The notes under the pieces: generated by a model
Database searches by the model: none
The model's input: the letters and a program-made list of their open reading frames with translations, nothing else
What the model was told of the DNA's origin: nothing
Position numbers and translations under genes: made by a program
Shown here: positions 1,421 through 23,909 of the stretch, one piece after another
Numbering within the stretch: the first letter of the stretch is position 1
Layout of the letters: each line of letters opens with the position of its first letter
NCBI GenBank assembly: GCA_973895155.1
Contig: OZ316891.1
Span: 23,311,899-23,375,898, forward strand
DNA: 64,000 nt
Source of the DNA: Marsupella aquatica
Taxonomy: Eukaryota > Plantae > Marchantiophyta
Direction of reading: 5' to 3'

Positions 1421-2271
1421 TCAAGACTTGCTGTTAAGAGGAGAAGAAATCCGCCATCGAATCAAACTCACTACTCCCTTGTGGATGTTGGGAAAGTATT
1501 GTGCTGCCACGACATCTTTCACAGTAATCCCAACATGTTCATCATCAAGAATTTCATCATCATCAACTGCCGCCGTCACTTGAGGGACAGTGACCATTCC
1601 AGTGGCAACCATTTTGGTTTGATCCAACCAATGTAGAGTTCAACCAACTCTGACATCCAGTTTGCCCGATGAAAATAGTCACGCTTAGTGTCTGTGGTGT
1701 TTGCCGAACAAGACTGTGAAACAAAATCCACCTTGTCCTTTTGCTTCTTAGAGGAAGATTTGTTGCTCCCATTGATATCAACATTCCATACTTTATTGTG
1801 GACGTTAGCCACATCCCATAGAACCCATGCCAAGAGCCCTTTGCCTCTTCAATTGTTGCAGCTCCACCATGTGCGTAAGGTAAAGTCTTACTACCATGAA
1901 TCACATCTGTGAATTTTACACTAACCCAAGACTCACCGAGTAATATGTTATGACTTCTCTCCATTGGATCGGTCTTGAAAACAACTCCAAAGGCCACACA
2001 ATGGCCAAAGATAAACATTTCAACCTTATCGCCTGGCCTTAGGGTGGTCAAAGCATCCTCCTCTACATTTGCAACATTATGGATGTTGTTATCTTTTTGA
2101 GTCAAACAACTACCAATACTGATGCATTTTTGAGTAATCTTATCTGCAGATTGATATGCACATGACATATCCCAAATGACACATGAGTCAATGACATCAT
2201 GAATATTTTCTGCCCTAGGCATTGGAAAAGGGAGCTTCCTAGTCTCACCAAAGGCCTTCTCAATGAGAACC
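1421..2271 (-). pseudogene. Tnp1/En-Spm (CACTA accessory, PF03017-like) domain gene, 3' part, frameshifted; about 3 tandem domain copies
   Basis: ORFs 1563..2351, 1576..1833 and 1421..1627 contain VAFGVVFKTDP..HNILLGESWVSV..LPYAHGGAATIEEAKGSW, LPFPMPRAENIHDVIDSCVIWD and VATGMV..GITVKDVV..LIRW. These match the VAxG..DP..LG..V..LP..TI.DA.G..W pattern of Tnp1-like domains (by eye). Confidence 0.6.
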
Positions 2272-2599
2272 TGTGACGGGGTCCCGCCACGGTAAATCAC
2301 CATTAGTGTCACCAGCAAGACACCTGTAAATAAATAAGCCCATAGACGCAAGTTTTTTTTAATGTTCTTTAAATCTGTAAAGTTTTTTAAAGCATCTCGG
2401 GATAGTCGGAGATCCCAACAGTTTTGTCTAGACCCGGGTTAATTATGGGGCAAAAACCAGGGGGGGTTTAAAATTGTGACTTTCCGGGAAGGTAAGGAAG
2501 TCCGGGAAATAATCATTTAATTTTTTGGTAACACCCCTTCTAAAGCAACACTCAGGCAGGACTGGAGGAGTATGGGGGGTTTAATTAAACCCCCATTAA

Positions 2600-3200
2600 A
2601 TCCTTCCGCGAGCTGCGAGCTGCCGCGAGTGAGGAGTATTGGGGGGTTTTACAATAAATCCCTCCTAAGGAGGGCCGCGAGCTGCGATCTGCGAGCCCTG
2701 CAGAGGGCGGGAGCTGCTGCAAGCTGCCGCGAGTGAGGAGTATGGGGGGGTTTTAAAATAAATCCCTCCTAAGGAGTCCGCGAGCTGCCGTGCGAGGAAG
2801 GGGAAGCGTCCGCGAGTGAGCCGCAAGCCGCGAGCTGCCAGGCGCGAGCTGCGAGGAAGGGGAAGCGTCCGCGAGTGAGCCGCGAGCCGCGAGCCGCAAG
2901 CTGCCAGGCGCGAGCTGCGAGGAAGGGGAAGCGTCCGCGAGTGAGCCGCGAGCCGTGAGCTGCGAGCTGCCGTGCGAGGAAGGGGAAGCGTCCGCGAGTG
3001 AGCCGCGAGCCGCGAGCTGCGAGCTGCCATGCGAGGAAGGGGAAGCGTTCGCGAGTGAGCCGCAAGCCGCGAGCCGCGAGCTGCAAGGGGCGAGGCGCGA
3101 GCTGCGGGCCGCGAGCCGCGAGCTGCGAGGCGCGAGCTGCGGGCCGCGAGCCGCGAGCTGCGAGGCGCGAGCTGCGAGGAAGGGGGACTCCCGCGAGTCG
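2600..3200. repeat. GC-rich minisatellite built from 7-bp GCGAGC(C/T) units with a higher-order GCGAGGAAGGGGAAGCGTCCGCGAGTGA unit
   Basis: Directly visible tandem repeats, preceded by duplicated GAGGAGTAT(T)GGGGGG(G)TTT blocks. Confidence 0.9.
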
Positions 3201-3577
3201 GGACAAAGGAGGGCTCCGGGGCGCAAGGCTAAAAGCTGCTCCCGGGGGGGTTTTCGTTGTTTTTTTCTCTCCCCTCTTTTCTCCTTTTCACACGACCCTT
3301 CTCTTGCCGAAAGCAAACTCGAGTTTCTCTCCCTTATTGCCGAAAGCTTTCTCCTTATGTTACAATTATTTGAGCTTTCTCTCCAATTCTTCTCAAGGCT
3401 CACTCATGGGGGATTGCGGGGACTGTCAGGGCATTAACGACAACAACATGGAGTGACGACGGAGGGGATTGAGAGAAATAAATTAATCGGGCTACGGGGG
3501 CTGTTTCGGGCCAGGGAATTGACATTGCTACGGGTGGCGGGATTTGGTGATTGAGAATTTGATTTCAGGATGCATGA

Positions 3578-5431
3578 ATGCTAGATCAACCGGAGTTTAG
3601 TGTGGCACGCATTCGGAGATACAAGGCTGCTTACCGTGACTACGTGGAGACTTTGATTGCAAGGGAGAGAGAAGAGAGAGAAGCTACGATGAGCACGGGA
3701 TTGGCAGCAGGTTCCACACCGGTGGGTAGGAGGATTTTTCGTCGAATTTATCCCAAGACCTCCGCCAAAGTGATGGAGGATTGTCGGAATATTTTCCAAG
3801 CCACCGGGGTTACAGAATTCATGAAGGTGGAGATTACCATCCCTCCGGGGAAGAGCTGGGACATTGAGGCCGGGATGGAGTTACGAACGGAGGGAATCTA
3901 CTTTGAATGTCTCAAACGTGTAGTGCCCCATGTGGAGTTGGCTAGGCTGCTGTTTCTGGGGAATCAGAAATTCTCATTCACACCTCGGCACATTAGGGGA
4001 GAACTCACGTTGAAGATGGTGGCCACTTGGGTGATTAATCCCACCTCCACCACTGCCATCCCTCTTTCCGCTGTCAAGGATGTTGAGTATAAGGGATTCC
4101 TGGCCAAGGTTCATCAACGGGTCCTTGGCAACGTGCAATCCGGGGTGGTGAATGAAGAGCATTTCGTGGTAGCTATGGACATCAAGAACCACCCAGCCCA
4201 TGTGTACGGATGGTGGTACTACGGGTTGAAGAAGCTGTTGGCCGCTGATCCCGGGAGTGTGAAACCAGGTGGGGCTGTACATTTGATGGGGTCATTTGTA
4301 TTGGCCAGGGCAGAAGGGTTGATTGGTTCCCCGGGACAGGAAGACACGGGATCATCTCTCACCACGGAGATCCGGAGTATTGCCACTACCGTTATAGGGA
4401 AGCTCACGGAGGAATCATCGTCGGCTGGTGGGGATGAAGATAGAGGAGAAGAAAACCAGGATGAGGACTACACGTTGGAGTGGCTTGAATCATTCATAGG
4501 AGATCCAAAAAAGCCCCTGGTCTACAACATTCCGGATGTTTACCTGGCAGAGCTATGGGATTTCAGAGAGGGAGTCCATGAGGGACTCAAGCTAATCCAC
4601 GCATTGAGAGATTCTCTCAAGCATGCCTCAGCCAGAGTAGAGACGTTAGAGCAGAGTACCCTATCTCTGAAGGAGGTGATCAAGGCCAAGGAGGGGACCA
4701 TTCATGAGAAGGTTAAGCTTCTCCAAGCAGCTCACGTAGAGATCTCCAACTTGAAGGGAGCCTTGTCCACCAAGGCCAAGGAAGCAGAAGAGGTGGGAGC
4801 ATTGAGACAAGCATTGGCCAAAGAGAAGCAAAATTCTAGAGAAGTGGTGGAGTGGAGAAACCAGGTGGGAGCACTACGGAGTCAGGTGGCCGCCTTTGAG
4901 ACACGAGCAAAGAGGAGTGAGGCCTTGAGTCTGGGAAAACGGAAGAGCCCCGGCACACCTAGCTCCACACTTTCCCCGGATTTGATCTCCCAGGCTATTG
5001 AGATGGTGGTGAAGGAGGTTAGTGGGAAGTATGGGCCCTTGTTGGATGGAGCCAAGAAGAGTCAGGAGAAGAGCAAGGGCTTGGAGAAGAAGCTCCGGGA
5101 GGTACGGAAATCATTACGGGAGGCTCAGATCAGTACGGGGATGCCACCCAGGTCTGTCACCCCCGGGACTCCCATGGCCACAGGGCAAGTTCTACCGTTG
5201 GAGTTGCGGTCCGGAGAAGATGCTACCCTATGGAAGGACACCATTGGTGAGGGGTACATCAAGGCGTGGCAGGCCTTGGCCACTTTGAGGAAGCAAGGGA
5301 GCGGCAGCACGAAGAGTACCCCGGTAAAGAAGAAGAAAAGTGAGGTGGCACTCACTCCCGTGAGTGATGAAGAGGAGGCCCACTCACGGGGCACAAGCCA
5401 GGGCACCGAGAGTGAAGAAGAGGAGGAGTAG
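3578..5431 (+). CDS. 617-aa retroelement accessory-type protein: N-terminal globular region, coiled coil, basic/acidic tail
   Basis: Uninterrupted ORF with an E/K/A/L-rich helical segment (about aa 340-500), a KKKK patch and an EEEEE terminus. It lies inside the putative solo LTR C. Confidence 0.6.
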   Translation: MLDQPEFSVARIRRYKAAYRDYVETLIAREREEREATMSTGLAAGSTPVGRRIFRRIYPKTSAKVMEDCRNIFQATGVTEFMKVEITIPPGKSWDIEAGMELRTEGIYFECLKRVVPHVELARLLFLGNQKFSFTPRHIRGELTLKMVATWVINPTSTTAIPLSAVKDVEYKGFLAKVHQRVLGNVQSGVVNEEHFVVAMDIKNHPAHVYGWWYYGLKKLLAADPGSVKPGGAVHLMGSFVLARAEGLIGSPGQEDTGSSLTTEIRSIATTVIGKLTEESSSAGGDEDRGEENQDEDYTLEWLESFIGDPKKPLVYNIPDVYLAELWDFREGVHEGLKLIHALRDSLKHASARVETLEQSTLSLKEVIKAKEGTIHEKVKLLQAAHVEISNLKGALSTKAKEAEEVGALRQALAKEKQNSREVVEWRNQVGALRSQVAAFETRAKRSEALSLGKRKSPGTPSSTLSPDLISQAIEMVVKEVSGKYGPLLDGAKKSQEKSKGLEKKLREVRKSLREAQISTGMPPRSVTPGTPMATGQVLPLELRSGEDATLWKDTIGEGYIKAWQALATLRKQGSGSTKSTPVKKKKSEVALTPVSDEEEAHSRGTSQGTESEEEEE

Positions 5432-6700
5432 ATAGTCGTATGGATGTGGTTGTACGGCCTCTGGATTTCCAACTTTTTTGTGAGGGGTCACTCACGGGCT
5501 TGTTGGAAAGAGCTCGCGGAGCTGATTCCAACAAGAGGCGGCGCTCCTCAAACGGAGCCAGGATGAGCAAGTTATGGCCCAACGAAATTGTGTTTTCGCG
5601 ATACGGAAACGACCATAACTCAGGCGTCCGATGTCCGTTGCGAGTGCGGCTGAGTGATTCGGGATCAGGAGGAGAAGGGCTATCCAAGGGTGAGCTCAAA
5701 AGTACAGTTGATAGGGCACCTAGTTTCAGCCATTGTGGGGTGCCTTGCAATTTCAGGGTTCACAGAGTACAGTTGGGGCGCCGTCGAAGGCACCGTCGGC
5801 CCCTTGTTTAGGGTTTAGGGTTTTAGCAGCATGTGTGTGCCGCATGCCTTTTAGTTTAGGGATTTCTTAGTGCAGGGTTTTAGCGGCGCCGCTAGGGTAG
5901 CCGCCATCGTTGTGACCCCATGAGGGGTGCTTTGGTGTGGTTTTTTTTGGTATTTAGGGGGAGAGCCCCTGAGTAGTGAGGGGGGAACTCAGCGTAGTAC
6001 TTGGATGCTTTGGAGTAGCTTTTGTGAGGAGCGCACCGATTAGGAGAAGTTCAAGCCAGAGTAGTGAGGTGGAGAACGTAGCACTTGTCCCCGGGAGGCA
6101 GGAGTTGGGCAGACGGTAGGAGGCCGGGTTGTCCTTGCATGTGTTACGGGAAACACCAAGAGATATGGATTTGGCTTGAGGTTCCAATACTTTGTGTGTC
6201 ACTTGTTGTTGCTTGTGTTGTTTGTTTTCCTCCCCTAGTGCGTGTGGTCGGTGTCGTTGTGGAAACATTTTCCCGTGTCACTAGTGTTCAAATCTTATTG
6301 TAAATGTTGGTATGCTTGCCCAAGAGAGGAGGGGGGTGGTGACAGCACTCACCCGGTGGGCATGAGTTGTAGATGGTAGGACCAGTCCCTTGGACTTGAT
6401 CAAAAACGGAGAGACCAGTCGGTAGACTTGATCAAAAAGTACACTTCCGGGAGCGGAATCAAACATACTCATCCTTAGGTGTGGAAATCCTCCAAATAGC
6501 GTCCCTCCACGACCCCGTAATACGATACCAACGGTTTAAGCAAGGAAAAGCACGGTTTGCACGTATTAATCGTTGGATAGGCAAGTGACAGAACCCCAAT
6601 TCGATTCTCTCCCAACACAATATTTTGAACACTCTCTCGTGGATCTGTCTTTTGAATTGTCCCATTTCCAACGTCGTAACCATCCATTGTCAAGGTCACA

Positions 6701-6745
6701 TAACCGTCCCTAGAAAACCTTTGAGACATCCTTTTCCTATTATCC
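6701..6745 (-). pseudogene. Upstream exon piece of the Tnp1-like gene interrupted by element C
   Basis: Minus-strand acceptor-like ttttttcagtgtgcag followed by IIGKGCLKGFLGT, in frame with 2271 downward. Confidence 0.45.
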
Positions 6746-6824
6746 TGCACACTGAAAAAATGGATTAAAACCAAAGTCATGCAAATTTTGATTCAGACCA
6801 AATGTTGAATCTAAATTTTTACTT

Positions 6825-7595
6825 AGACCAACCAAGTTTGGATTTGGGCTGGGACCATCCAAGTCTGGATTTGGACTGCTATCCTTCGAGTCTGGATTTG
6901 GACTACGATCCTCTGATTCTGGATTTGGACTGGAACCATCCGAATCCGGATTTGGACTACGATCCTCCGATTCTGGATTTGGACTGGGACCATCCGAGTT
7001 CGGATTTGGACCGGGACCATCCAAGTCCGGATTTGGACTACGATCCTCCGATTCTGGATTTGGACTGGGATCATCCGAGTCTGGATTTGGACTGGGACCA
7101 TCCCAGTCCAAATTTGGACTAGGACCATCCCAATCCAAACTTGGAATTGGACCATCCAAGTCCAAACTAGGACTTGGGCCAACCCAATCCAAACTAGGAC
7201 TCGGACCATCCCAATCCAAACTAGGACTTGGGTCAACCTAATCCAAACTAGGACTCGGACCATCCCAATCCAAACTAGGACTTGGACCATCCAAGTCCAA
7301 ACTTGGACTCAGACCATCTCAATCCAAAGTTGGACTCGGACCATCCTAATCCAAAGTTGGACTTGGACCATCCCAATCCAAAATAGGACTTGGACCATCC
7401 AAGTCCAAACTTGGACTCGGACCATCCCAATCCAAAGTTGGACTCGGACCATCCCAATCCAAAGTTGGACTCGGATGATCCCAATGCAAAGTTGGACTTG
7501 GATGATCCCAATGCAAAGTTGGACTTGGATGATCCTAATCCAAACTTGGACTAGGACCATCCGAATCCAAACTTGGACTAGGACCATCCTAGACC
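6825..7595. repeat. 27-bp hairpin minisatellite (core GGACCATCC flanked by TTGGACT/ATCCAAA), roughly 28 copies
   Basis: Tandem 27-bp units giving 9-aa periodic ORFs. Perfect 13-bp stem at 7085-7113 (ATTTGGACTGGGA-CCA-TCCCAGTCCAAAT). Confidence 0.9.
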
Positions 7596-8489
7596 AACCC
7601 ATGATGTAATGGGAGATAAACTTCAAACATCTTAAGCTAAGAAAAATCCAAATTTAGGAAGACTCCGTATTTTACGGATCTCCCTATATGGTGTAGCCTA
7701 AAGTTTGCGTGGTCTTAAGGCAGACCCTAATGTCTACATACAATTTCATGAAATAATGGAACCTTATATTTGAATGCATTAAACCTTAATATACTCACCT
7801 TAGTATTAAGATCTGGTAGAAGATGAATATCACATCCAAGGGGTATACATTGTTGTTTGTAGATTGGGAAAAACTTTCCCAGAACCTTGAAATACAAGCT
7901 ATATGCCACTAAATCTTGGGAGTAAAAAACAAACTGAACCCTAAACCACACATGTCTGTAAACGATAAACTGAGAGGACTCCAAAAGTCAAGAAGCTGGC
8001 TAAGCTGACCCATTGAAGGTAAGTGGCTCAATACATGAAATTCTAAGAGAAACTCCGGATTACATGGAGCTTAGATTTGGGAAACTAGAACAAGAATGAG
8101 CTCCGAAGTGGGCGTCTCCCAAACTATATACCCTTTGCTCGAGTCGGCTCAACTGGAAATCGCGTGAAGATAAGGGTCGAGTACCCCTTCACACACCTTA
8201 TCTTCACGAGCCTAATTGCGCGGGGACTACCATGCAAGGTTGTTGGGCAGCACACCAAGGAACAAGGCCCGTATTCAGGGTGAGGGCAACGGGCTGTACG
8301 CAGGAGCAGGCCATACGCAGGAAGGCCGCAAGCAGGAAGGGGTGAAGGCTGTACATAGGAGCAGGCCGTACAGATCGACGCAACCGGCCATACAGAGGCA
8401 ACCAGCTGTACGCATCCCAGGGTGAGGCAGGAGGGGGTAAAGGGACGGAGAGGTCCAGCCAGGACCTCATTCTCACTCCTTGCAAACTC

Positions 8490-8585
8490 ACTCTCTCTCC
8501 GCCTCCGCCTCCGCCTGCCTCTGCCTCTCCTCTCCTCTCCTCTCCTCTCCTCTCCTCTCTGCCTCTCCTCTTGCTCTCGCTCTCT
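8490..8585. repeat. CT-rich microsatellite (CTCCGC, CTCTC), continuing at 9226-9312 after the MITE
   Basis: Visible simple repeats on both sides of the TIR element. Confidence 0.85.
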
Positions 8586-9225
8586 AGGCCTCATTCACAA
8601 TTGGGTGTACCTCGCAGGAACCACTTTCAGGACTCAAAAACATGCTTTTTTAGTGAAAAATGACTTTTGTAACATGAAAAAAGCACCATCATGATTTTAT
8701 CTCAAGACATTTAAGTCTAATTTTTTCACAAGACTATTTTACATGGTGTTATCTACCTCACCATGTAGATAAATCAAGTTTTCAACTGTTTTAAGGGATC
8801 CTATTATTGATGGCCGTAAATAAGCCAAAATTACTGATTATTTTTGTCCTGTACATAAAGGTTTAGTGTGTGTCAATATTTGAGTTTTGAAATATAAGAT
8901 TATTCTATTAGTATGCATGCTTTGGTAAAATTTCATTGTCTAAAATGCATTTTTTAGAGTCCTTTTGAGTCCTGAAAAGATGTGACCCATTGCGTGACAA
9001 GTCATTTTATCAATCTTTGAAGGACATATAAGGAAAGCTTCAAAGTCTCAAATGCTAGATAGTTTAATGAATGTTACCAACCTACAGGATGTTTATTAAG
9101 TATAGTACATCAAATTTTCTATATCATCTCATTACACCCTACAAATGATATCCTAAAGCATAATAAACTATGGTCACTTTTGAGTGTGACGTTCCTTTTG
9201 GGTCCTCCAATTGTGAATGAGGCCT
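8586..9225. mobile_element. MITE, 640 bp, possibly PIF/Harbinger-Tourist-like
   Basis: 19-bp perfect TIRs AGGCCTCATTCACAATTGG / CCAATTGTGAATGAGGCCT around an AT-rich non-coding interior. The TSD is ambiguous within the CT repeat. Confidence 0.75.
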
Positions 9226-9543
9226 CTACTCTCCGCCGCTCTCACTCTTGCTCTCCGCTCTCCGCCGCTCTCACTCTTGCTCTCCGCTCTCTCTCCGCCT
9301 CCGCCTGCCTCCGTCTTTTTCATTGCCCTAGATTGGACGTCTGCTAAGACACCATGTGTCACGCTGCCATGTGTCAGGAAGATGGAAGCAAATCGCATCC
9401 TTGTGATGTCCTCCGTGGAAGCAACGGAGGAGTTTGACCTCTCCTCTATGAGCGACAGTGTAGAACTGGCACTCAAAGACTCCAGACAATTTCAATCACG
9501 AATCCCTAGTAAGTATCCATCACCTATCCTCCCTAACTCTTAG

Positions 9544-9805
9544 CGGACTGGGACCATCCGAGTCCAAAGTTGGACTAGGACCATCCAAATCCAAAGTTGG
9601 ACTCGGATGATCCCAATCCAAACTTGGACTCGAACCATCCCAATCCAAACTTGGACTTGGATGATCCCAATCCAAACTTGGACTCAAACCATCCCAATCC
9701 AAAGTTGGACTCGGATGATCCTAATCCATCCAGGAGATTGAATCCTGATTGTAGAAGCAAGTCTAAAACCATCTCAAGTTGGACTAGGACCATCCTAATC
9801 CAACA
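9544..9805. repeat. Second array of the 27-bp hairpin minisatellite
   Basis: Same GGA(CC/TG)ATCCCAATCCAAA(C/G)TTGGACT unit as at 7120-7590. Confidence 0.85.
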
Positions 9806-10208
9806 AGAGTTATTCGAATGTTTTAAAGGTTTTAAGTCTAACATGGATGACGTTTATGATGCAGGGAGCGATCTTGTTGGTTTCAAACCCACAATTGCAC
9901 CGACCAACTGCCCCCGGGGTCCTCACTTATTTTCTTCCGACCCATCACGCGCGAATAAGTATAGGGTTTTTTTATTGGGTTTAGTGAAATACTTTTAAAT
10001 TTTTGTTGAAGAACATTAGGGTTATTTTAATCCAATTTTGAGAATTATAATAATCATAGGGTTTTTTAAAATCAAATATGAGAATATTCTTGGAATATTC
10101 CATTAAGTTAGGGGTAAAATAATTCCTTAAAAAAACTTTATTGACTTAACTTTTAGGGTGTTTAATATTCCCCCAAAACTTCGAGCGTGATATGGGACAT
10201 CCCTAGGA

Positions 10209-11878
10209 TTGAGGCCCCCGAGCAACTGCCTGGACGGATTCTTACTAGATGAGAGATCCCCAGGCTTCCGATGGGGGCTTGAGTTCTCAAGAACCCCGCT
10301 CAATAATGAAGTGTCATCAAGCACGATTGAACCTATTTTGACCTTAAAGTGCAGAGGAAATGATAGCCTGACTTTTGTTTGCGGACTTGTGGTCTCTGTT
10401 GGCATTGGGGGAGAGGGATGAAATTGGTCATTCTGGAGATGCACAATAGGTCCTGTTGGGTTAAAGTTAACCTTCTGTCAAAGGCATACTCCTTTGAATT
10501 CAATGTCGAATGGCACACAAATGGGGAATTGAGCGTTTTGTCAATGGGATTTTTTCCAAAGACCTATGACACAAAGAAGTTGGTCGACGGGGTAACTGGT
10601 ATGCTTCTAGTCGACATTATGTATGGGTTAATTTTCAATATTTGAAACTCAACATGATGAAGCACCAAGGCAATTTCTCTTTTCCAACTACCTGGACGTT
10701 AAGCAATTTACTTGAGAAAGCTGGATTGTTATTGTTGGATTTGGAGGAGCCTGGTGTTTTAATTGATAAGGATGTTTCATTTGCTTCCAAGTTTGATTTA
10801 GTCAAAGCAAAGCAATGGATAGAATCTTTGTCCAAGGCGAGAAAGCTTCCAGCGGTGAATACAAACCCTGAGCCTAAGCAAGCGCCAGAGAAAGCTCCAG
10901 AACCTACAACTGAGACCGCGGGAACTACAGCAGCGACCTCTCAAAGAGCAATGGGAAAAAAAAACAAAGCCAAAGAAAACTTCCGGTTGAGAAGAAACTT
11001 GCTGTGGAGAAGCCGGTTGAGAAGCCAAGTACGAGAAGCCAAGTACGAGAAGCCGAGTACAAGAAGCCAAGCACGAGAAGCCAAGTTGAGAAGCCGGTTG
11101 AGAAGAAACATCCGGTTGAGAAACCGAGTGCAAGTGAAAAGAGGCCAAGACAGAAGAAGAAACAGAAAATTGACAGTGCCATCATGGATGACACTACAAA
11201 AAACCAGACAATGCATTCACAAGATGTGGACGAGCAGTTGGATGCTCCTGAGGAGAAGAAGGTCTTAGAAGGTAATGAGGTACTGCAACAAATGGAACAA
11301 TATTATACGTTTGGGATCAATTCGATATTTTCTATTCCCGTAGAGAGTATTTTCCCTGTGTCGGCAAGACTCTGTTACAGAATGTTGAATGCAGACCATG
11401 TAAGGGATGTGGCCAATTCCATGATAAGAAATCCGGGGCATGAACCACACATAGTAGACTTGATTCCTTACACTGCAAAACATAGAAACCTAATGCAGTA
11501 TGACAACACAAAATCAGATAGGAGGGACTTTGTAGCAGCCGTGAAAAAGGGCGAGGTTCAATTCCTTGCCATTAGCAATCAACATTCGGCCAGAGCAACC
11601 AGATGGATTCGAGAATGGGCAAAGAAGGACGCCAAGCTAACAACATTGGCAAAAAAGCTGGAATTTCAAAAGTCAAGAATATTATCTCATCGAACACCAT
11701 CGTCATATTAGTTGAGCATTCAATGCAATCTAATGCTATCAATAGCACGATGGTGTTTCAGTCATGCTTCAAAGATACAGTCGTTCATGCTAGGCGAGAA
11801 TTTGTGGAATGTGGAAGACCTAGCCGGCCAAAACATGGGGACAACAAAACAAATGCTCAAGACAATCAAAAATTTCAG
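10209..11878 (+). pseudogene. Exon 1 of a decayed gene: unknown N-terminus, K/E/P-rich repeat linker, ParB/Srx-like domain
   Basis: Chain of overlapping frameshifted ORFs (10209, 10379, 10642, 11004, 11603). Motifs FSIPVESIFP..RMLNADHVRDVANSM..VQFLAISNQHSARA..LVEHSMQSN resemble the ParB N-domain. Ends at donor CAG|GTACG (11878/11879). Confidence 0.55.
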
Positions 11879-11949
11879 GTACGAAGTGTTACTGCTTGAT
11901 GGGTACAATACCGTAGACTCTCATGGTAGTCTTTGAACATAAAGCTTCA

Positions 11950-12212
11950 AGTTTGGTTTGGATTGAGATGGTCCAAATGGATACATGCACATTCAGTAGA
12001 ATATTTCCACTGATATCGTCTAGTTTTGTGTTGGACTGGGATGGTCCCAGTCCAAATGGATTCATGCACATTCAATAGACTATTTCCACTGATATTGTCT
12101 AGTTTTGTGTTGGACTGGGATGGTTTGAGTCCAAATGGATTCATGCACATTCAGTAGAATATTTCCACTCATATTGTCTAGTTTTGTTTTGGACTGGGAT
12201 GGTCCCAGTCCG
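11950..12212. repeat. 79-bp tandem repeat (about 3.3 copies) containing the hairpin core in the opposite orientation; probably intronic
   Basis: TCCAAATGGA recurs at 11972, 12051 and 12130. Each unit contains a TTGGACTGGGATGGT(CCCAGTCC)-type core. Confidence 0.9.
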
Positions 12213-13752
12213 CACCTGAGTGCCTTCAAACAAATGAGTTATAGTGGTGGACCTTGCCACCCAACGCCCTCACCAATCCCGGCACCCACGCCTAAGTGCC
12301 TCTGGTGCCCGAACGCCTCCACGGAATACCACGAGCAAGCACCTAAGTAGTGCTCTTTGCACCACCAACGGCCCCTCCCATACAAAGCCGCACTTGGTCT
12401 CTCTAACACAACCGTTACTCAACGGTCCTCACAGTCTGCACAAGCAACCAAGCACCTCGGTAAGTAACCCCTCAGGATCTAGAACTCGCCAAGTCTAGCA
12501 TCCTAACTCAAGCTCAACAGACGTTGGTAAATACGTCAGCGATAGGTCCTCCCGATGCCATAAGCCGGAACCAGAACCCACGCCCATTTTTTGTCCAGAA
12601 CAACTCCTTCCTTGGGCGCGGCACGGGTTCCCCCTCGTACTTATCCATCACCAACTGACCGCCTTGACCTCAAGACATGCTCATGGCCCCCAAATAAGCG
12701 TAGCTTGTCCCCAAAGCTTGTCTCAACACGCCCGGACCAGAATGGCCCCGGCTCTAGCAACCAACTCCCAGTTCGCCCCATTGATGGTCTAGGGCCAAGC
12801 ACCCTTGGGACTCAACCTCCCACCTACTTGGCCTTGCCTCCCCAACGCAAGCTCCCTTGGGAGACTGAACGCGGCTTGGCTGCTGTTCGACGGGATTTGG
12901 CAAGTGGGTGAGCTAACACCCACTTCCCACGAGAAACCATGGCACCTCCAGACCCAGCTGAGCTCAAGAGGACGTAGCCCTCCTCGAGAGCTTTCCAACG
13001 CACCCAAGAAGTCCTCCAACGGGAAGATATCGTCATTTTCGTTTGACGTCTTCCCTTGGTGTTGCGACCACCGCGGCTCACGACTTGGGCTCGCCCTTGG
13101 CCCCCAGGGAGACACCACTCCTCTCATATATGCTTCTGGAGACCTGCCACCCCCAGACCAACTTTGGTCCTCAATATTTGGCATACAACTAGAATCCTAT
13201 TTTGCATAACGGGCGCGCCACGAACTGGCAACGCCTATAACTCTCTTGTTAGGCATCCGCAAATGGAGTGCCTTAGCCCGTTGTCACCGGGCCGACCCAG
13301 TGCTCATGCCTAGGTCCTCAGGTCTCATCGCCGCTCAGGGCCCCGATCGGCCCAACCCGGATCGAGCCATAACTTGCGCCCCAAGTGTCCGTTGCCCATG
13401 GAGTCAACTCCATTGGCCTTGGGCCCACGCGGAGCTCACACTCAAGCCCTCAGAACTCAAAGTCCGTCCGGATGGTCGACCTTGAGCCCAGCTCATATCC
13501 CCCGTGACCCGACCAGCTCCCAGCTAGCCAAGGTCCTTAGTGAGTGTCACCAGCTTGGCGCCTTGCCTTCGCCAGTGCCACTTCCCAATGCCCACAAGTC
13601 TCCCCATGCTAAGTCCTCCCCGGATGGCCTATCTGGGCCTGGACCATAAGGGAGCTCAGCGTCAGAGTCAACGACGCGCGGAGCTAAGTGTTAAGGTAGT
13701 CAAGTTTCGTGACTATTATGGAGAACTAACAAACTTTCCTTTGCAATTGTAG

Positions 13753-15200
13753 GATTGGTTGGCTCTTGCAAGAATGACCATGGAAAGGAAAGATTGTTGA
13801 AATGTTAAATACTGGTTACTTTTTGCGGACAATGCTCTTTTTAAGTTATGGAGTTTGGTATGCCAGTTGTGGTTGGATGGAAAACTTCCCGATGGAGTTG
13901 GGGTAGAAGGAAATGAGAAGTCTGAAAAAGCAATTACTGTTGCCATGTTTCGTTGTTTTGATGGTGAGTTGATCTCACCAAGAGACATCACAAGAATACT
14001 GACACGGGTGAAGTCAGGAAAGGTATTGCTAAAGAAAGATGCCTCTAATAAATCAGACATGCCATCTATAGAGGAGTTGGCCAAAGATGTGAAGATCGTG
14101 CAGAAACTGAAGTCCCTTATTGAAGACTACTATTGCACCAAGGATGCGGTGAATTTCCCGGCAAATACTAATTGGGGGAAAGTAGTTGAGGTTCTTCCTA
14201 CGCTAGCAATTGATTCAGAGTTCAGCAGGTGTCGAAGAGCCGCTGGCGAGGTCTATCTTGCCAACCTTTTAAAGCCAAATCATACGCGGGAGAGCGCAAT
14301 CTTGCCGACGGCATTGGCATTCCACCTAGATGATATATACTGCCAAAAATTTGGTGGAGGATCTCGTTCTCGGACCCTACCATGGGTTACATTTTTTAGC
14401 GACAATCTCATGAAGACCATTGATCCAGAGTCATTCATTGCAAGAAGCTCCTCCGACCTGCCCTCTTGCCATTGTTGATTTTAGCCGGCTTCAGCAAAAA
14501 CAGTGGACTGAAGCAGAGATTCTCGTTCTCTTTGAATACATTGTGGAGCTTCCACAAAATCCAACGATTGTTGTGATGCCCGTTGTGACAATAACAGTTC
14601 ATCCTAGACAACTTGCACTGAATGTCCATGGTGCCCTTTGTAAATTGGGACAAGAGAAATCTTTGACCATTCACATTGAGTATGGGAGTTATTCCCGAGA
14701 TGATCAACCGCACCCTCATGACTCATGTTGGGGTGGGGGGATTGAAGAAGTTATCTTTGCGGGGATTTCTCGAGATGAAGATGTCAATTGTAATGAAGTT
14801 TTCAAGCCCAACAATCCAAAGCCCAAATTCTTGTATACTTCAAAGGATGTTGATTACAAAGTATGCAAGATCGACAAGGGAAAGGGGAAGGCTAAGGAAT
14901 CAGATGAGGGGACACAACACAACAACCTTAAAGTAGTTTTGGACCCGGAAGAGGCCGTCAAGATTATGAATATGGCCCCTCGATTTGAGATAGTTGGCAG
15001 TCGCGGAGGGTGGGTTAATCCTCATGCCAAACCCACACGGATGATCCAAAGGATTATTGAATCCTTGTCACAACCGGGAGATTCGGTTCTAGATTTTTTC
15101 TCGGTGCCAAGTCATGAAGACATCATTTTTTTATGATAGGGAATGCTTTGTTTATTGTGACTCTCAGTCCGAGAGGCATTTTGTGGAGCTTTTGCTTCCT
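13753..15200 (+). pseudogene. Exon 2 of the decayed gene, ending in a beta-class N6-adenine/N4-cytosine DNA methyltransferase-like fold
   Basis: Acceptor ttgcaattgtag|G at 13752. ORFs 13855..14478 and 14420..15136. NPHAKPTRMIQRIIESLSQPGDSVLDFFS matches the PF01555-type HPxxKP..LI..S.PGD.VLDPF motif. LAIVDFSR sits where DPPY/SPPY is expected. Confidence 0.6.
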
Positions 15201-15688
15201 ACCTTTGCAAGAGAGTTCCCTCACTTAAAGCCCATTGTGAATCACTTGCTGAAAATTCTCAACAATGGGCTACCACTGTTGTGGTTGTAGCTGTCACTGT
15301 TGAATCTGATGGTTTTGAGTCTCAAGATGTTGCTAACAAAGTGGCTGAAGGCGTAGAGGCATCAGAGGGGGCATATGTCAAGAATTTGGATGACCGTGTT
15401 GGTCAAGGTGAGCCTTACGATGTAGATGATGATATTGGACTTGCACCAAACCGTTCATTTGTTTTGATTTGATGACATCCCTCCGGGGCCCAATGAAGTC
15501 CAAGTTGATGATAACTTGGACAAGGATGATCCCAATCCAACAACGCCGGGAGGACAGATGGAGCAAATGGAAGGAGCAAGGGTTGATACGTTTGATCATC
15601 TTTCTTCAACCAATCTGATCAATGAAGGCACAATGAGGCTTGGAGATTCAAATGAAGCTGAAACTTAAGAATTGTCTCAGGGGGAGAC

Positions 15689-16308
15689 TATGATGCCTAG
15701 CCAAGAATCACTAGGCCCGTCACTAGGCTAGTTTAAATGATAAAATAAGGAGTAGAACCTGGAAACACATTAGTATAGTAGCAAAAAGATGGAAAATATA
15801 AACAATTAAGGGTGGCTATGGAACCCAAGCCGAGGCCGGAAGTAAGGACACCGGGGGAGGGAACACGATTAGGGTTAGGGTGCGCTAAGTGCCGACGGCT
15901 ATGGGTAACTAACGGGAAGGAAGACCAATCGGGGGGGTAAGGATCGATTGCAAGGAATGATGGCTCATTTGCAAGCACGAACTAAGCAGCCAACTACGGG
16001 AGGCCAACTACTATCAGCTGCTTAGGCAAGCACTCTGGGCGGGAGCAGGTACCGACAATCAACTCAAGGAGGGTATGAGCAACATCAATCAAGCGGCTCA
16101 TTTTTGGGGATCCCTATTAGAACGGGCAACTGAGGACATTGGGACCTACGAGGATGAAGAATCGGAGAGAGCCGCTCGGGAACGGCAGGAGCTCGCTCAA
16201 CTGTGGGAGCTGCAAAAGTCTGCCTTCTTAGGAGGAGAACTCATCATGGCTGAATTCATGTGGACACCTGCTACCGACAAACTCGGCGATCTTCTATTTT
16301 GTAAGAAC
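15689..16308 (+). mobile_element. Diverged family-A-like LTR, 5' fragment (resumes at about 17699-17797)
   Basis: TATGATGCCTAG resembles the TGTGATGCCTAG terminus. Encodes MSNINQAAHFWG..ESERAARERQELA, as in the A-LTR ORF. EVQLHFAREEDACFTAMQ..GSGLE follows the B insertion. Confidence 0.85.
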
Positions 16309-17695
16309 TGTCACGTCATCAGCCTTGGCCTTAACTCGGGCTTCAGCTTTAAACGGGCACATCCTTCGTAAATATGAGGGTTCGGGTAGGGAGGGACGAA
16401 TGTAATGCACCCAATTCATGTAAACTAGCGCTAAGTGCGCCTACTGTTAGATACGGACATCTCCTAGGTATGGTTTGTGTTCCGCCGCCGAAACGTACCT
16501 TAGTCGATAACAGGATCGACCCCGGCTTAAGGACTTCTAAGCCTTCGTGTTGTCCGCCCTCGATTCGGATGCGATGATACAGGTCCTCAACCCATGCTCG
16601 CAACCACATACCCGCAAGCTGCACCCTGTGCACGATTTGGGTAGTGCGTTCGGCCCGGCGTTGTCACCTATACACAAGATTCACACATACATACACGCGC
16701 ACAAGCATACAATCTCGATTTACACGAAGGAAATAATGGGAAAGGATTTTACTACATAGGGGACATAAGTGTACACTTGGTTGACCCGACAGCTCCGGAA
16801 TGAACAGGTTCAAGGCCGAGGGTGTACACTACAACGGAGCCCGGCTCCGCACTCGCCCGGCGAGCTTAGTCCTACCCCCTCCCCTTGGTACTCTTTCACT
16901 CCCAGAGGTCAGGACTCCCCGCATCTACCACCGATGTCCAACTCTGAGACTAAAACCCCCCCCCCTTGCCTCTACCGAGGGGTGCACTAAATACTAAGGG
17001 CCGAGGAACGGAGTGTCCTCCCGCCCAAAGATTTGCTGACTAAGGTCCTAACTAAGCTGACTGTCAGGCCAAAAAATGGCTGTCTTATTAGAAGATCCTA
17101 ATCTACGCAGGCTGGACAGCATGGCAGTGCTGCTGTAACTAAGGCAGGTGCCTGTCCCAATAGCTTGACTTAGCTATTCCTAACCCTATTCCATTCCTAC
17201 TCCACCGCTAATGTCTGGCACGCTTGCCAGAGCCGCCCGAGTGGGAGCGGTCCTCCCGCTGCCTGCAAAGTCTATCGTTGTCCAACTTGAGGAGCTCGAC
17301 TTGGTCTAGCAGAGATTCGTTCTCTCACTTCGCAGCGTCCGTCTCCTCCGCTGCCTCCTGGCATGCCTCCTCCAATTGCTGGGCGTTGCTCATCAGCTTG
17401 CCCACCAACTGGTCCTGCTTCTCGGCTTTGGTCTGAAGCCGCGCTACTTCGGCTTGTAGCATGGCTATCTCCGTAGTGTCCCGCTGGGCCCGTTCTTCGG
17501 CCTCCTCCAAGTCTTTCTGCCAAATGACAGTTTGATTCTTCAAACTATCAATTTGGGACCGGAGCCGTGAAATCTCGGCCTTGTTCCCAGCTTTGGCCTA
17601 CTCGGCTAGGGCGGTAAGGGCGTGCACCTTTGCTAACAACTTATTGGCGGCTGCAACTTTGGGTCGTAGTTGCAGAAGCTCAGCCTCTTGAGTTG
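16309..17695 (-). mobile_element. Family-B LTR fragment inserted into the A-like LTR, then truncated by deletion
   Basis: Starts TGTCACGTCATCAGCCTTGG as at 30849, is colinear with the other B LTRs, and encodes the KNQTVIWQKDLEEA coiled-coil tail. Confidence 0.9.
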
Positions 17696-18620: not shown

Positions 18621-18625
18621 AAGGG

Positions 18626-18817
18626 TGTTGTGACATTAATTCTATCAAGATCTCAATCAATCCATCAACAACTCCAATTAAAGTATGACCAATTCATGGT
18701 CATATATATACAATGTTAGTTAGGGTAGTTATGATCCTATTCATCTCCCTTCTACTAATTCGTACCCTTTCAGGTCTCCCTATCCACTGTGTTTGGGATA
18801 ATATTTGTATTACAACA
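18626..18817 (-). repeat. 3' LTR of the copia element
   Basis: No differences from 23910-24101 by eye. PPT at 18818-18825. Confidence 0.95.
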
Positions 18818-19147
18818 CTCCCCCTAGATTGCTAATAATGTATCATTTGGTGCAATCTAATGGGTAATAAATAGTTATCCAAATGTGGTATTTCTAATCT
18901 GATTTGCCATCAGGTGTAACCTCATTAAAAACCCTCTGCTTTCTTCTAGGGATAAAAAGAGTGTTACCACCCACAATGATGGGCCAGAAAAATTTATAAT
19001 GTATGTGTTCTCTATTTTGTAAATAGAGGTAATGGAAGTTCTCGAGTATTGAAAAATATGTGTTTCAGGCTTTGTGCTTTCCTGCTTGTGGTGTATTATG
19101 GTTTAGGTCATATTGGTTGGTGAGTCGACTTATTGTGGGTACTGTAG

Positions 19148-22100
19148 TCAAGGTTTCAGGATTGAGAGTCGACGCATGCCGATGCCCTCGCAGTGTTCAT
19201 TGTGCAGGATTCTAGGTAATGGTTTCGTGAAAAGGTCAGCTCTGTTTTCTTTGGAAGGGATCCAGACTATGTTGATGTGATCCCCGTGTTGTTCTGCGGT
19301 GTAGAAAAATTTCGGTGCTATATGTTTAATTCTGTCTCCTTTTATGAAGCCCTTGGTGATTTGATTGACGCAGGGTCGGTTGTCTTCAAAGATCGTTGTT
19401 GGAGCTGTCAGGTTAGGTCTTCCGGCAGAGGTATGGATGTGGTTGACTAGTTGTCGAAGCCAAACACATTCTCTACACGCTTCGTAAAGTGCGATTACTT
19501 CAGCATGGTTCGATGAGGTAGTGGTGAGTGTCTGCTTGGTGCTTTTCCACGATACTGCAGTCCCGCCTTGAAGGAACACATATCCCGTCTGGGATTTAGA
19601 ATCGTCAGGGTCGGATAGATAACCTGCATCGGCATAGCCCATGAGTTTGTTAGGAATCGTATTAGCATAGTATAGTCCTATATCTATTGTGCCTTGCAGG
19701 TACCTGAGGACTCGCTTGATGCCGTTCCAGTGGCGGATTGTGGGTTGGGAGCTATGTCTTGCAAGTAAGTTCACTGCGAACGCTATGTCGGGTCTGGTCT
19801 GGTTCGCAAGGTACATCAATGCTCCAATGGCGGAGAGGTAAGGTTTTTCTGGGCCGAGAAGTAGCTTTGAGTCTGTTCTCTTATGAAATATATCCTTTGT
19901 AGGGTCTAATGATCGAAGGTCCATCGGTGTAGTAACCGGATATGACTTGTCCATATTTAACTGCGCTAATACCTTGCGTGTGTAAGTAGACTGGTGGATA
20001 AAGATGCCTCCCGGTAATGTCTCGATCTGTATACCAAGGCAGTAATTTGGTGTGCCTATGTCTTTCATTTCGAATGCTGCTTTTAGAGTTGCTATCGTGG
20101 TGGCAGTGAGTTCAGGTGTACCAAAAATACTTATGTCGTCGACGTAGATCGCGGTAATAATGAACTCATCTCATATATGCTTGATAAATAAGCATGGAGC
20201 TATCTCGTGATTCACGAACCCAAGAGCGAGCATTTCTGCCTTAAATCTTTGATACCAAATCCTCCCGCTCTGTTTAAGGCCATAAAGAGAGCGGAGGACC
20301 TGTACAGCAATCTTGTTCTTGGATTTCTCTTTGCTGACAGTCTTGTTCACAGGTATCTTAACCTTGGTGGGACAAGATGGTATAGCATCAAGCTCTGTCT
20401 GTTTCTCGAAAACAGTGGGGGTTGATCTGTGGTTGATCAAGTTCATCTGCATTTCTGTAGGTACAATCTGGTCTACGCCAGACTTTAGATCTGGAGATAA
20501 TGGGAGAAGTTTCTCCCCCTGAATATGGAATTTAACTCTGTTAATGAGTTCAGGCGGGGCCTGCATATAGATCTCTATGTCTAAAACTCCATAGAGATAT
20601 GCTGTGACGACGTCCATCAGGTGCAGCTTAAGTTTATGAATCAATGAGAAAGCAATTAGGTACCTGTATGTGATGGCGTCCATAACCGGGGCATAGGTGA
20701 GGTCATAGTCCTTTCCCCAAATTTGTGTGTATCCCTTTGCAACCAATCGTGCCTTGTGTCTAATGACTTCACCTTTTGAGTTACGCTTTCTTACCAGTGT
20801 AATTCTATGTCCTGTCAGGTTCATGTCGGGTGGAGCTAGACAGAGTTTGCCAAACACCTGACGGGAGATAAGTGAGTCGAGTTCTGAATTTATGGCTTTT
20901 TCCCATAGGGGCCAATCGTCTTGTTTTCGTGCTTCACTGACTGTGTGTGGCTCGGTTCGATCGGAGGAAATTGTCTCTAATATGAGAAATGAAAAGTTCT
21001 CATTAATCGCGGTGTCTTGGCGGATCCAGACGTTCCCTGTGTGTGCATAGTTCAGGGAAATTTCTTCATTGTCGGCACATGGTTCCGGTATAGTTGAGAG
21101 TAAGGTAGTAGTTGGGCGTTTGTTCCTTAGTGTCCGATCCTTGGAACCTGGTGGGCGTCCTCTTTTTGCTTTGGGTGCTGCTGCAGTTGCTGGCCGTTCG
21201 TTGATGGAGATCCGGGCAGGGGTATTTGCTGCCTCTATGTGGGATTTGGTTACATTCGCGGCGTCATTGAAGGCGTCGGGTAATTTCTCCATCATTTGAT
21301 GTAGGTGTAATATGCGTTTTACTTCATCATTGGCTAATTTGGTCCTGGGGTCATTCCAAAACTGGTCCGTAGTTTGCCACTTTAGTTGGGTAGGCTCGAG
21401 TATGTCTTGTATGTCAGTGGTGCTCAATGTAGGGAATATCTCCTCTCGAAATTGACAGTCATTGTATCTTGCTCGGAATATGTCCGCAGTCGTTGGTTCT
21501 AGATATCTTATTATCGAGGGGGAATCAAATCCAACATATATACCGTTCTGGCGCTGTGGTCCCATCTTCGTCCTCTTGGGGCCTAGTATAGGAACCATTA
21601 CTAAGCATCCGAATGTCTTAAGGTGTGATACATCTGGGATGGTTCCGTATGCCATGTGGTATGGTGAATATGAATTAAATGCTGACGGTCTGAATTTCAG
21701 TAGTTCCGCTCCATGCAGGACGGCGTGTCCCCAAGCTGTAATGGGAAGTTTTGTTTGCATAAGCACTGGTCTCGAGATCATTTGTATGCTTTTAATGAAT
21801 GATTCTGCCGTGCCGTTCTGAAAGTGGACGTAAGCCACTGAGTATTGGACTATTATACCTAGTGTAGTGCAGATATCGTCGAAGGCCGGGGATGTAAACT
21901 CGCCGGCGTTATCTATCCGGATTGTGCGAATGGGTGAGTTCGGGAATTGCGCTCTCAGCCTGAGGATCTGAGTAAGTAGGCGCGCCAGGACCAAGTTACG
22001 GGTTGAGATAAGTGATACTTGGGACCATTTTGTTGAGGAGCAGATCATCACTAAAAAGAATCGAAAGGGTCCACTTGGGGGGTCGATGGGGCCACATACG

Positions 22101-23755
22101 TCAATGTTCAGTGTTCGAGGAACGCCGGGATCCTGTGTACTGTCTTCGAGGCTGATGGTCTGATCTGGAGTTTTCCTTGTGCGCATGCTGGGCAGATTTC
22201 CTTCATAGATGTGGGCTTTACCGTATGGGGTATTCCGCGGGTGTCCTTGAGAATTCGATGGTACATTGAGGTGCCTGGGTGGCCCAGGCGACGGTGCCAC
22301 AGCTCAGTAATTGTGGGTGTCTCTGCTTCCACCTTGTATGTGTGTATCGGGGTGGCATATAGTCTTGGTGGGTGGTATGGTAATGATTCATGTATAATTG
22401 GGTCTTCACCAGTTTCTGTCAGTATCTGTAGTGAGTTATTATTTGGGCCTGAAGTTGAGCGAATCTGGTAGCCATTTTCGTGGACGTCTTGAAAACTCAA
22501 TAGGTTCCTGGTCGCGTTGGGTGCGTATATTGCAGAATGTATGTTGATCAGTGTTTTGTTTGGGAGTAGAATTCTTGCAGGGCCGTGGCCTTCCTCTAAG
22601 TTGTTGGTTCCCGTTATGGTCGTCACTAGCCGATTCGATGGTGATATCTTTTGGAAGTAACGTTTGTCTCTTAATATAGTATGTGATGTGCCATTGTCCA
22701 GGATACATATGTTATCGTCAGAGAGGGAGGGGGCCAATGTCTCATCTGTGGCGAGATGTATCTCTGGGGGTGGCTCAGAGTTCACATACTTGCTGAGGTC
22801 TGCATCGATTTCTAGGTAGTTTGCTACCGTCATTGTTTGCGCTGTGGGCAAGCTTGCCTGATATCATTTGACTAAGTTTGGTTGGGCTCGGCAGTCGCGC
22901 TTGATATGTCCGGGGCCGCCGCATCGAAAGCATTGGATGGGTGGTTTCTGGGGGTCTCATTGCCAAGAGGTCTTGCTTCGTGGAGATTGTGTCATCGTGG
23001 GTTTGTTATATCGTCCTCTCTGGAATCTGGTCTTCGTATATCGTGGGTTTGTTATATCGTCCTCTCTGGAATCTGGTCTTCGTATATCGTGGGTTTTGTT
23101 TGGCGTGGTGTCCCTGGAATCGTCCCTTGCCTTTGAATGTGTCGGCCGCTTTTGTGGAGTTATATTGTATTTCCAATTTCGGGATAGTTCCTGGTGGTCT
23201 CGTTTTAGAGTTTTGCATCAAGAGTAGGTCGTTCTTCTCTGCCAGGAGCATAACGGCAATGAGGTCTGAGTATTCGGTGAAGTGCATCTGTCGATACTGT
23301 TGGGCTAATGTCATGTTTGCTGCAGGGAAGGTCGACAGCGTCTTCTCTATCTGGTCGGCTTCCGAGATTTGTTGTCCGCATACCTTCAATTGGGAGGTGA
23401 TCCGGAATAGTGTGCTGTTGTAGCTTGCTATTGTTGGGTGATCGAGGACTCGGAGGTGTATCCAATCGTTTCGTGCTGCCGGTAGGGAAATCAGTCGGAG
23501 GTGGTCATATCTTCGCTTGAGTGCATCCCATAGCGCCCTCGGGTTGTATTCGTCAAGATATTGGGCCTGTAAGTCTTGGTCTAGGTGATGTCTAAGGATG
23601 AATATGGCTTGAGCCTTGGTCTGTAGGTTTCCATGGTGATCTGCAATTATTATGTCCCCGAGTCCCTTCGCATTGAGGACGATCTCGGCGTTTTGTGACC
23701 AGGATAGGAAATTTGATCCATCGATCTTCAATACTGGGAATTGTAATTTCTCCAT
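19148..23755 (-). pseudogene. Copia gag-pol polyprotein, disrupted
   Basis: Gag 23006..23755, CFRCGGPGHIKRDC knuckle, protease ILDNGTSH, LWHRRLGHP, integrase IRIDNAGEF, RT KARLVAKG/LYGLKQSGR/IYVDD, RNase H GYADA..IFEDN..ADLFTK. Broken by a 46-bp duplication, a frameshift near 22110 and TGA stops near 22868 and 20171. Confidence 0.93.
22994..23096. repeat. 46-bp tandem duplication in gag causing a frameshift
   Basis: ATCGTGGGTTTGTTATATCGTCCTCTCTGGAATCTGGTCTTCGTAT at 22994 and 23040. Confidence 0.9.
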
Positions 23756-23909
23756 GTATAATAAAGTGGCTCGGGGGATTCAGAAGAAATTGTCTGTCTT
23801 CCCGATTGTTTGTCTTTCAGAGGATAGGTGTGTATGGAAATTATCAGAGTTCAACGCGTCTGGTCTCTTTTAGCTCGAGAAAAATCTGAGACATCAGGTG
23901 CTGATAACG

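Follow-up and report, generated by a model that had tools for sequence, protein, structure and literature searches.

The stretch of Marsupella aquatica DNA analysed here, 64,000 nucleotides of contig OZ316891.1 (hereafter the window), contains a decayed gene in which a putative ParB-like domain and a methyltransferase-like domain are joined. The copy in the window is a dead member of a multi-copy gene family, and the sequences of its relatives indicate that the exons encoding the two domains belong to one gene. Modelling of a relative assigns the C-terminal half the fold of a beta-class amino-methyltransferase, and the motifs of the family suggest that this domain is probably non-catalytic. 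By analogy with algal elements, the gene is likely an accessory gene of a DNA transposon, and a 25-bp palindrome that recurs upstream of the gene and in its introns is likely a candidate target site of the encoded ParB-methylase-like protein. Within this context, it is tentatively proposed that the protein serves as a non-catalytic factor by which the element recognises its own palindrome arrays.

Evidence for a single gene comes from the relative P0119, one open frame of 1009 amino acids on a 4.5-kb contig (the start may be incomplete), which contains both halves, i.e., a ParB-like part that matches the family profile with E 1.4e-38 and the C-terminal core, and which maps to both window exons. 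The Calypogeia models P0006 and P0031 span the same exon junction, and the junction at the second intron is identical in P0006, P0031, P0014, and P0119. A preliminary description of this DNA had proposed a two-exon gene with a GT..AG intron at 11879-13752. The intron proved exact, the motifs that it named are present in the sequence, and the linkage of the two exons stands, whereas the exon count does not, as there are three exons. It had also allowed that the two exons might never be linked in other copies; P0119, P0006, and P0031 link both.

An exhaustive search with P0001 returned 110 proteins at E <= 0.001 among representatives at 50% identity. Names were found on nine of 20 relatives looked up (three from Calypogeia fissa and six from Riccia sorocarpa), all of which are liverwort gene models. 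Nine Calypogeia models are located on six scaffolds and six Riccia models on three, and many annotated copies are partial. In sequencing run X2, depth was 383-455 for contigs that match exons 2 and 3 and a divergent open reading frame (ORF) described below, compared with 14-22 on the flank at 1-1450; such depth is a sign of a multi-copy repeat only and not a copy number. A tree of 15 family and nine phage domains split the family from the phage enzymes (support 100/100) and grouped the window copy with Calypogeia proteins (95/92), the placement of four long branches being unsure. The tree gives no donor or date. Scans of metagenome, prokaryotic-genome, and viral contigs, which relied on exact short words and have low sensitivity, revealed no related loci. 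In one Riccia sorocarpa model, P0094, residues 801-947 match an NIF/FCP1-like phosphatase domain (E 2e-13), which may reflect a real fusion or a merged model.

The fold of the methyltransferase-like half was assessed on the relative P0010 rather than on the window copy; P0010 was modelled from an 85-row alignment (pLDDT 82, the predicted local distance difference test) and used over residues 169-463. The beta-class fold suggested in the preliminary description, a Rossmann-like one whose catalytic motifs precede those for SAM binding, is well matched by this model, which aligns with CcrM at Z 17.8 (root-mean-square deviation 3.8, 229 aligned) and with M.RsrI at a Foldseek E of 3.5e-8. The 11 best VIA rows for the model are all amino-methyltransferases, with Z from 14.1 to 17.8, and unrelated folds score 5.1 or less. 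The next fold matches are MT-A70 proteins (METTL3-METTL14 and MTA1c chains, Z 8.6-11), and the fold is also found in giant-virus and phage proteins. In profile searches, the window matches PF01555 with E 1.1e-5, but the match is limited to the stretch from motif X to motif I, and the best score (25.9 bits, for both the window and P0007) lies under the gathering score of 26.7.

The property that sets the family apart is its motif IV. In a global hhalign alignment with five phage enzymes, LAIVDFSR falls on their D-P-P-Y strand. Motifs were counted in 124 aligned proteins, a set that omits P0002-P0005, which duplicate others or lack coverage, and that includes some near-copies from clusters. The canonical (D/N/S)PP(Y/F/W) was found in 0/44 relatives covering the site (0/37 before cluster members were added) and, SPPY included, in none of the 128 collected proteins. 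At this site, aspartate is present in 40 of the 44 and arginine in 31, an aromatic fourth residue occurs once, and proline never; divergent Riccia and Logan members read DLTH, DLVR, DTTS, or DATL. The catalytic position is thus indeed altered, as the preliminary description had noted, and the idea that DFSR merely reflects decay of the window copy was rejected, since the change is a family-wide trait. The remainder of the pocket is largely preserved: against the SAM-loop pattern D-x-F-x-G-x-G of beta-class enzymes, the DFFSGG positions of motif I are kept in 35-40 of 42 sequences, in a loop one residue shorter than that of M.RsrI and phage enzymes, the acidic residue of motif II is D in 23/40, and the lysine of motif X is present in 48/49.

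In amino-methyltransferases, the aromatic residue of motif IV stacks on the flipped base. With the fold and the S-adenosylmethionine (SAM) pocket conserved and the base-binding motif lost, established knowledge of these enzymes therefore favours a pseudo-enzyme, although altered chemistry is possible; the conserved aspartate, lysine, and SAM loop could equally serve catalysis, which weighs against a purely non-catalytic domain. The earlier suggestion that the protein marks its own DNA by methylation becomes less likely than that description allowed because none of the 44 relatives keeps PP(Y/F/W), and a label of active N4/N6 methyltransferase would be wrong for this gene. More generally, methylase activity cannot be taken for granted in transposon cargo of this type: two liverwort lineages have lost the catalytic motif, and the fold and SAM loop persist.

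The N-terminal domain probably has a ParB/Srx fold, an assignment that we hold with reasonable but not high confidence. When the domain alone was compared with ESM Atlas and DUF3723 was excluded, 12 of the 30 named matches were ParB_N clusters with a score of 0.90, sharing just 120 of 256 features. The preliminary ParB assignment is weakly supported; a match to PF02195 was not obtained, and profile tests were at or near chance. Several observations weigh against a ParB fold. No ParB match appeared in Pfam, NCBIfam, PHROG-ParB, or PDB sequence searches; hhalign against three phage ParB domains scored at chance (42/100 and 42/60 shuffles as high, with shallow profiles); and pairwise scores against ParB were marginal, 18-312 of 1000 shuffles being as high under a low gap penalty that was chosen afterwards. 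The nucleotide-binding motif of ParB/Srx proteins has an arginine-bearing G-x-x-R consensus, and where phage domains carry GHxR (GHGR, GHQR, and GHLR in the three compared), S(G/N)QHS is found in 4/4 family sequences, preceded by an insertion of ~35 residues. A tblastn search of phages with the ParB-like protein yielded no match. For the whole of P0002, the top Atlas matches were DUF3723 and unnamed fungal clusters (0.91-0.92). The position of P0002 near both DUF3723 and ParB_N clusters is a lead that DUF3723 may itself contain a ParB/Srx-like domain.

The gene extends from 9382 to ~15690 and comprises three exons, with several frameshifts and two inserted elements:

9382-9508, forward strand: exon 1 (predicted), with ATG at 9382 and a GT donor at 9509
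9509-9864, forward strand: intron 1, GT..AG, with eight palindrome units at 9543-9803
9865-11878, forward strand: exon 2, encoding the N-terminal domain, a low-complexity Lys/Glu/Pro linker, and the ParB-like domain, as delimited by tblastn with P0005 and P0119
9913-10222, unstranded: 310-bp inserted element in exon 2, non-autonomous, resembling a miniature inverted-repeat transposable element, abundant, with 13-bp imperfect inverted ends
11334-11878, forward strand: ParB-like domain (likely ParB/Srx-like), 59% identical to P0002
11879-13752, forward strand: intron 2, GT..AG, splicing KFQ to DWLA in frame
12243-13714, unstranded: ~1.47-kb insertion in intron 2, a very abundant repeat, probably an (unusual) solo long terminal repeat (LTR)
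13753-14364, forward strand: helical domain of exon 3, between the ParB-like and methyltransferase-like parts, with one stop near 13798
14365-15235, forward strand: beta-class amino-methyltransferase fold of exon 3, with frame changes at ~14431 and ~15104
15236-15689, forward strand: acidic tail, decayed, containing a single palindrome unit (15516) and cut at ~15690 by LTR-like sequence

These limits differ from those first given (10209 to 15200). The real start lies ~830 bases earlier, 10209 falling inside the 310-bp inserted element, and the reading frame continues to the LTR-like sequence at ~15690, which is 78% identical to the LTR at 44727. Exon 1 aligns with residues 18-48 of the Calypogeia model P0005 (score 54, equalled in 0/2000 shuffles) and is spliced in phase across intron 1. 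Altogether, the gene pieces are 38-59% identical to intact relatives, which exceeds chance. The named motifs begin at 11334 (IPVES), 11574 (SNQHS), 14477 (DFSR), 15017 (NPHAK(P)), and 15092 (DFFS), and QVMKTSFFYDRECFVYCD comes after DFFS in a different frame. As a correction to the preliminary description, motif I is DFFS(GG) itself, and the QVMK...YCD piece makes up the following helix and the strand of motif II.

The protein cannot be made from the window copy because of frame changes, inserted elements, and the removal of its end by the LTR. The frame of exon 2 changes near 10410, 10628, 10960, and 11700; in contigs of the sequencing runs, the five bases at 10628 are absent from other copies, as are the four bases at 14431. 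The 310-bp element is flanked by an 8-bp target-site duplication (9905-9912 and 10223-10230), and contigs of 4/4 runs lack it, joining 9904 to 10223. The insertion in intron 2 is absent from contigs of 2/4 runs (joint 12238 to 13716), and many differing flanks occur at 12243 in run contigs; this repeat has AGT..ACT ends rather than TG..CA and a near 5-bp duplication. Within exon 2, 14/42-bp tandem repeats at 11007-11107 encode an EKP-rich peptide repeat; tandem peptide repeats are also described in variable regions of the VANC proteins (PMC5735166, in the passages available). The helical domain of exon 3 is ~47% identical to P0001 and P0006 and is confidently helical in the P0010 model; searched within the larger model, it had no match above Z 4.5, which is not a clear one and gives no evidence of a new fold. 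The conserved C-terminal domain of five relatives (the last ~120 residues of P0001 and P0006-P0009, with DE(Y/F)G as the terminal motif) was not found within the window.

The palindrome, TTGGA(C/T)TNGGA-N3-TCCNA(G/A)TCCAA, occurs in 35 units when up to six mismatches are allowed: 23 in an upstream array, eight in intron 1, three in intron 2, and one in the 3' tail. The upstream array is the largest:

6844-7597, unstranded: upstream palindrome array with a 27-bp period and 23 counted units

All units lie within 6844-15540, none is found elsewhere in the 64 kb, and none appeared in any of 20 shuffles, although the counts are not independent, because tandemly arrayed units are related by descent. 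The units of intron 2 (at 12031, 12110, and 12189) have a period of 79 bp and an orientation opposite to that of the other arrays. Variation is greatest at positions 8 and 18, which mirror each other and are complementary in 8/35 units against 9.3 expected. Since these mirror positions vary without covarying, a symmetric protein site is a better fit than either a hairpin or a repeat that encodes protein. The position left free is thus the same in each half-site, which would be expected of a dimer-binding site with a single unread base in each half. A hairpin role was rejected for want of covariation, and coding arrays are unlikely, given that they are intronic and that, whichever strand is read, they vary at a second codon position, stops included; Rfam returned no match in 1-16400. 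Some points weigh against a function as a target site: the arrays have been seen in this element family alone, a minus-strand frame over 6743-7237 is open, and minisatellites can arise without function.

The gene, the arrays, and a divergent ORF act as a single repeat unit, sharply bounded on the left at ~1448, where the sequence continues differently in a deep contig. The repeat covers at least 1448-15690, or about 8 kb without three insertions, and its left part contains the following:

1566-2265 and 6590-6792, reverse strand: divergent ORF of ~300 codons, in the same repeat as the gene
2272-6590, unstranded: LTR-like insertion of 4.3 kb with TG..CA ends and a 5-bp target-site duplication, splitting the divergent ORF

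The insertion at 2272-6590 is regarded as later because a contig in one of four runs joins 2265 to 6590. It is abundant in the runs and contains a 617-codon open frame at 3578-5431 without a Pfam family. The divergent ORF, open across the joint, encodes a duplicated ~60-amino acid domain (internal repeat score 78, reached in 0/2000 shuffles). As a neighbour in the same repeat, it had been described correctly, but the Tnp1 domain ascribed to it was not recovered: no TNP1 or other transposase match appeared in Pfam at E up to 10, and a resemblance to TNP1-type accessory domains is putative. A tblastn search of phages with this ORF gave no match. An 86-codon, protein-like frame on the minus strand at 7730-7987 could represent another exon of the divergent gene and has no Pfam match.

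It is reasonable to regard the repeat as a DNA transposon because of its layout and of the algal precedents discussed below. Against this view, the window yielded neither a transposase nor terminal repeats, nor a target-site duplication for the element as a whole. The CACTA-like carrier proposed in the preliminary description did not gain support either, as no termini were found and no TnpD-type DDE transposase was present among the 48 window ORFs scanned (of 137 listed) in a copy that is truncated on both sides. Assignment to CACTA is therefore premature, and the gene should not yet be filed as CACTA cargo.

How might such a protein act? Quite possibly, and this is the explanation that we tentatively prefer, it is a non-catalytic self-recognition factor. 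Its likely ParB-type domain would bind the 25-bp palindromes in its own element, with a dimer reading the two half-sites; binding at many intronic sites would keep the element's genes expressed or shield them from host silencing, as in VANC/VANDAL, and the methyltransferase fold would be kept as a SAM- and DNA-binding scaffold. It seems unlikely that the protein is instead, in line with the preliminary description, an enzyme that remains active with a motif IV of unusual form (DFxR), placing N4-methylcytosine (4mC), N6-methyladenine (6mA), or another SAM-derived mark at or near the arrays. The full fold and the residues kept in motifs I, II, IV, and X would suit such an enzyme, and self-modification is proposed for the same domain pair in a paper on Ectocarpus (PMC12477816, in the passages available); however, the prolines of motif IV are missing throughout, its base-stacking aromatic residue survives in one of 44 sequences, the glycine loop is shortened, and motif IV drifts further in the divergent members. 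Similarly unlikely, in our estimate, is cargo with a non-specific or unrelated role, in which case the arrays would be neutral minisatellites or sites for the product of the divergent ORF or for a transposase acting in trans. The largest array is indeed nearer to the 5' pieces of the divergent gene than to the ParB-methylase gene, contig joints suggest that array length differs among copies, and the ParB assignment is weak. Neutral arrays are nonetheless difficult to reconcile with one palindrome that is found in both introns, with periods of 27 and 79 bp, in both orientations, and nowhere else in the 64 kb, and that varies in a mirror-symmetric manner.

Two further explanations have a much lower probability. 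The protein could be an inactive METTL14-like half whose role is to direct another, active enzyme to the element, either one that the element encodes or one of the host (e.g., the 4mC methyltransferase of liverworts). In the fold search, METTL3-METTL14 and MTA1c chains rank directly after the beta-class enzymes, and the passages available from the literature report inactive partners for eukaryotic amino-methyltransferases (PMC4738411) and active TSPPY enzymes in Marchantia (bioRxiv 10.1101/2021.02.12.428880). This explanation is very unlikely, given that no (D/N/S)PP(Y/F/W) motif occurs in the collected proteins and that none is encoded by the scanned window ORFs. It is also highly improbable that the gene belongs to an expanded host gene family or an integrated virus-like remnant rather than to transposon cargo. 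The lack of a transposase or termini in the window, the spliceosomal introns, and the occurrence of the same fold in giant-virus and phage proteins would agree with such an origin, whereas the sharply bounded common repeat, the many partial copies, and the lack of a relative in viral or prokaryotic contigs (in short-word scans of low sensitivity) argue against it. A bolder form of the preferred self-recognition idea, which we consider doubtful, holds that a liverwort DNA transposon has rebuilt a bacterial ParB/parS-like system in the plant nucleus, its protein loading on the intronic 25-bp palindromes, in which the DFxR site would read SAM or modified bases or would make a new modification that shields from silencing. 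The self-recognition idea is open to a binding assay because a candidate site and intact homologues exist.

The remainder of the window is repeat-rich eukaryotic DNA with an LTR retrotransposon nest at ~15690-58900. A Ty3/gypsy element has LTRs of 4.65 kb (33853-38502 and 44727-49378, 99.6% identical), each with an open frame of ~950-1000 codons and no Pfam family above cut-off. A Copia element at 18625-24101, with identical 193-bp LTRs and a 5-bp target-site duplication, is a recent insertion and has stops or frame changes in its coding region. In the AT-rich DNA after the nest (59204-60184), a segment of ~310 bp is duplicated at 70% identity.

In comparison with known systems, of which the cited papers are considered here through the passages available, the gene is a land-plant variant of a known ParB-plus-methylase transposon cargo and not a new kind. 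The pairing is thus less novel than the preliminary description implied, as it has been published for an Ectocarpus Sola transposon, and ParB and methylase accessory genes have been published for red-algal Plavaka elements. Our literature search, with most subscription journals outside its coverage, returned no land-plant ParB-methylase transposon gene. A close likeness is Sola1-1_Ec32 of Ectocarpus, whose 1104-amino acid accessory protein combines a ParB-like domain with an N4C/N6A methyltransferase (PMC12477816). In both systems, a single protein of comparable length unites this domain pair (compare the 1009 amino acids of P0119), and its gene lies in a repeat, opposite another gene. However, the Ectocarpus element has a transposase, 282-bp terminal inverted repeats, and a 4-bp target-site duplication, and its methylase is treated as putatively active, whereas the liverwort family has no visible transposase and has lost the catalytic motif family-wide; the two were compared by description and not by sequence. 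The passages of the Ectocarpus paper that propose self-modification report no test of it.

In the Plavaka (EnSpm) elements of Bostrychia, PAG2 combines a methylase with SET and PAG3 combines ParB with a 2OG oxygenase, and inverted-repeat tandem arrays that adjoin the ParB-like PAG3 are proposed as binding sites (bioRxiv 10.1101/2025.02.11.637652). ParB-like and PF01555 domains thus occur as transposon cargo near inverted-repeat arrays in both cases, but in Plavaka they reside in two genes, whereas the liverwort family fuses them and has arrays within its introns as well. Three phage fusions of ParB_N with N6_N4_Mtase share the order of ParB followed by a beta-class methyltransferase, and motifs X and I of the family align with five other phage methylases (hhalign probability 95.9). 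These fusions have DPPY and 408-418 amino acids, whereas the plant family has a ~200-amino acid helical domain between the two parts, extra N- and C-terminal domains, and introns.

A functional rather than sequence analogy is offered by VANC of Arabidopsis, which targets tandem repeats upstream and within the introns of its own VANDAL element (PMC5735166); the liverwort protein would likewise be encoded by an element and target repeats in that element's introns. VANC, however, has DUF1985 and DUF287, with no sequence relation suggested, its motifs are short and same-oriented rather than palindromes of 25 bp, and its function has been shown, whereas that of the liverwort protein is inferred. 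Prokaryote-type beta-class folds in eukaryotes are further represented by rotifer N4CMT and by Marchantia DN4MT1, the latter from a liverwort too. DN4MT1 belongs to the host, is active, and carries TSPPY (bioRxiv 10.1101/2021.02.12.428880), a motif absent from 44/44 sequences of the window family, which is multi-copy and carries the ParB-like fusion. Iyer et al. 2016 described ParB-linked and inactive eukaryotic amino-methyltransferases (PMC4738411), and the window family is absent from the passages available. In fungi, Starship transposons carry DUF3723 (PF12520) as a conserved cargo (bioRxiv 10.1101/2021.12.13.472469); P0002 resembles DUF3723 clusters in Atlas features (0.91, 12/30 matches) but has no Pfam match to PF12520, which makes this likeness a lead only. 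For ParB-plus-methylase cargo, the liverwort family is an example from land plants in which a candidate target site can be named concretely and natural homologues are intact.

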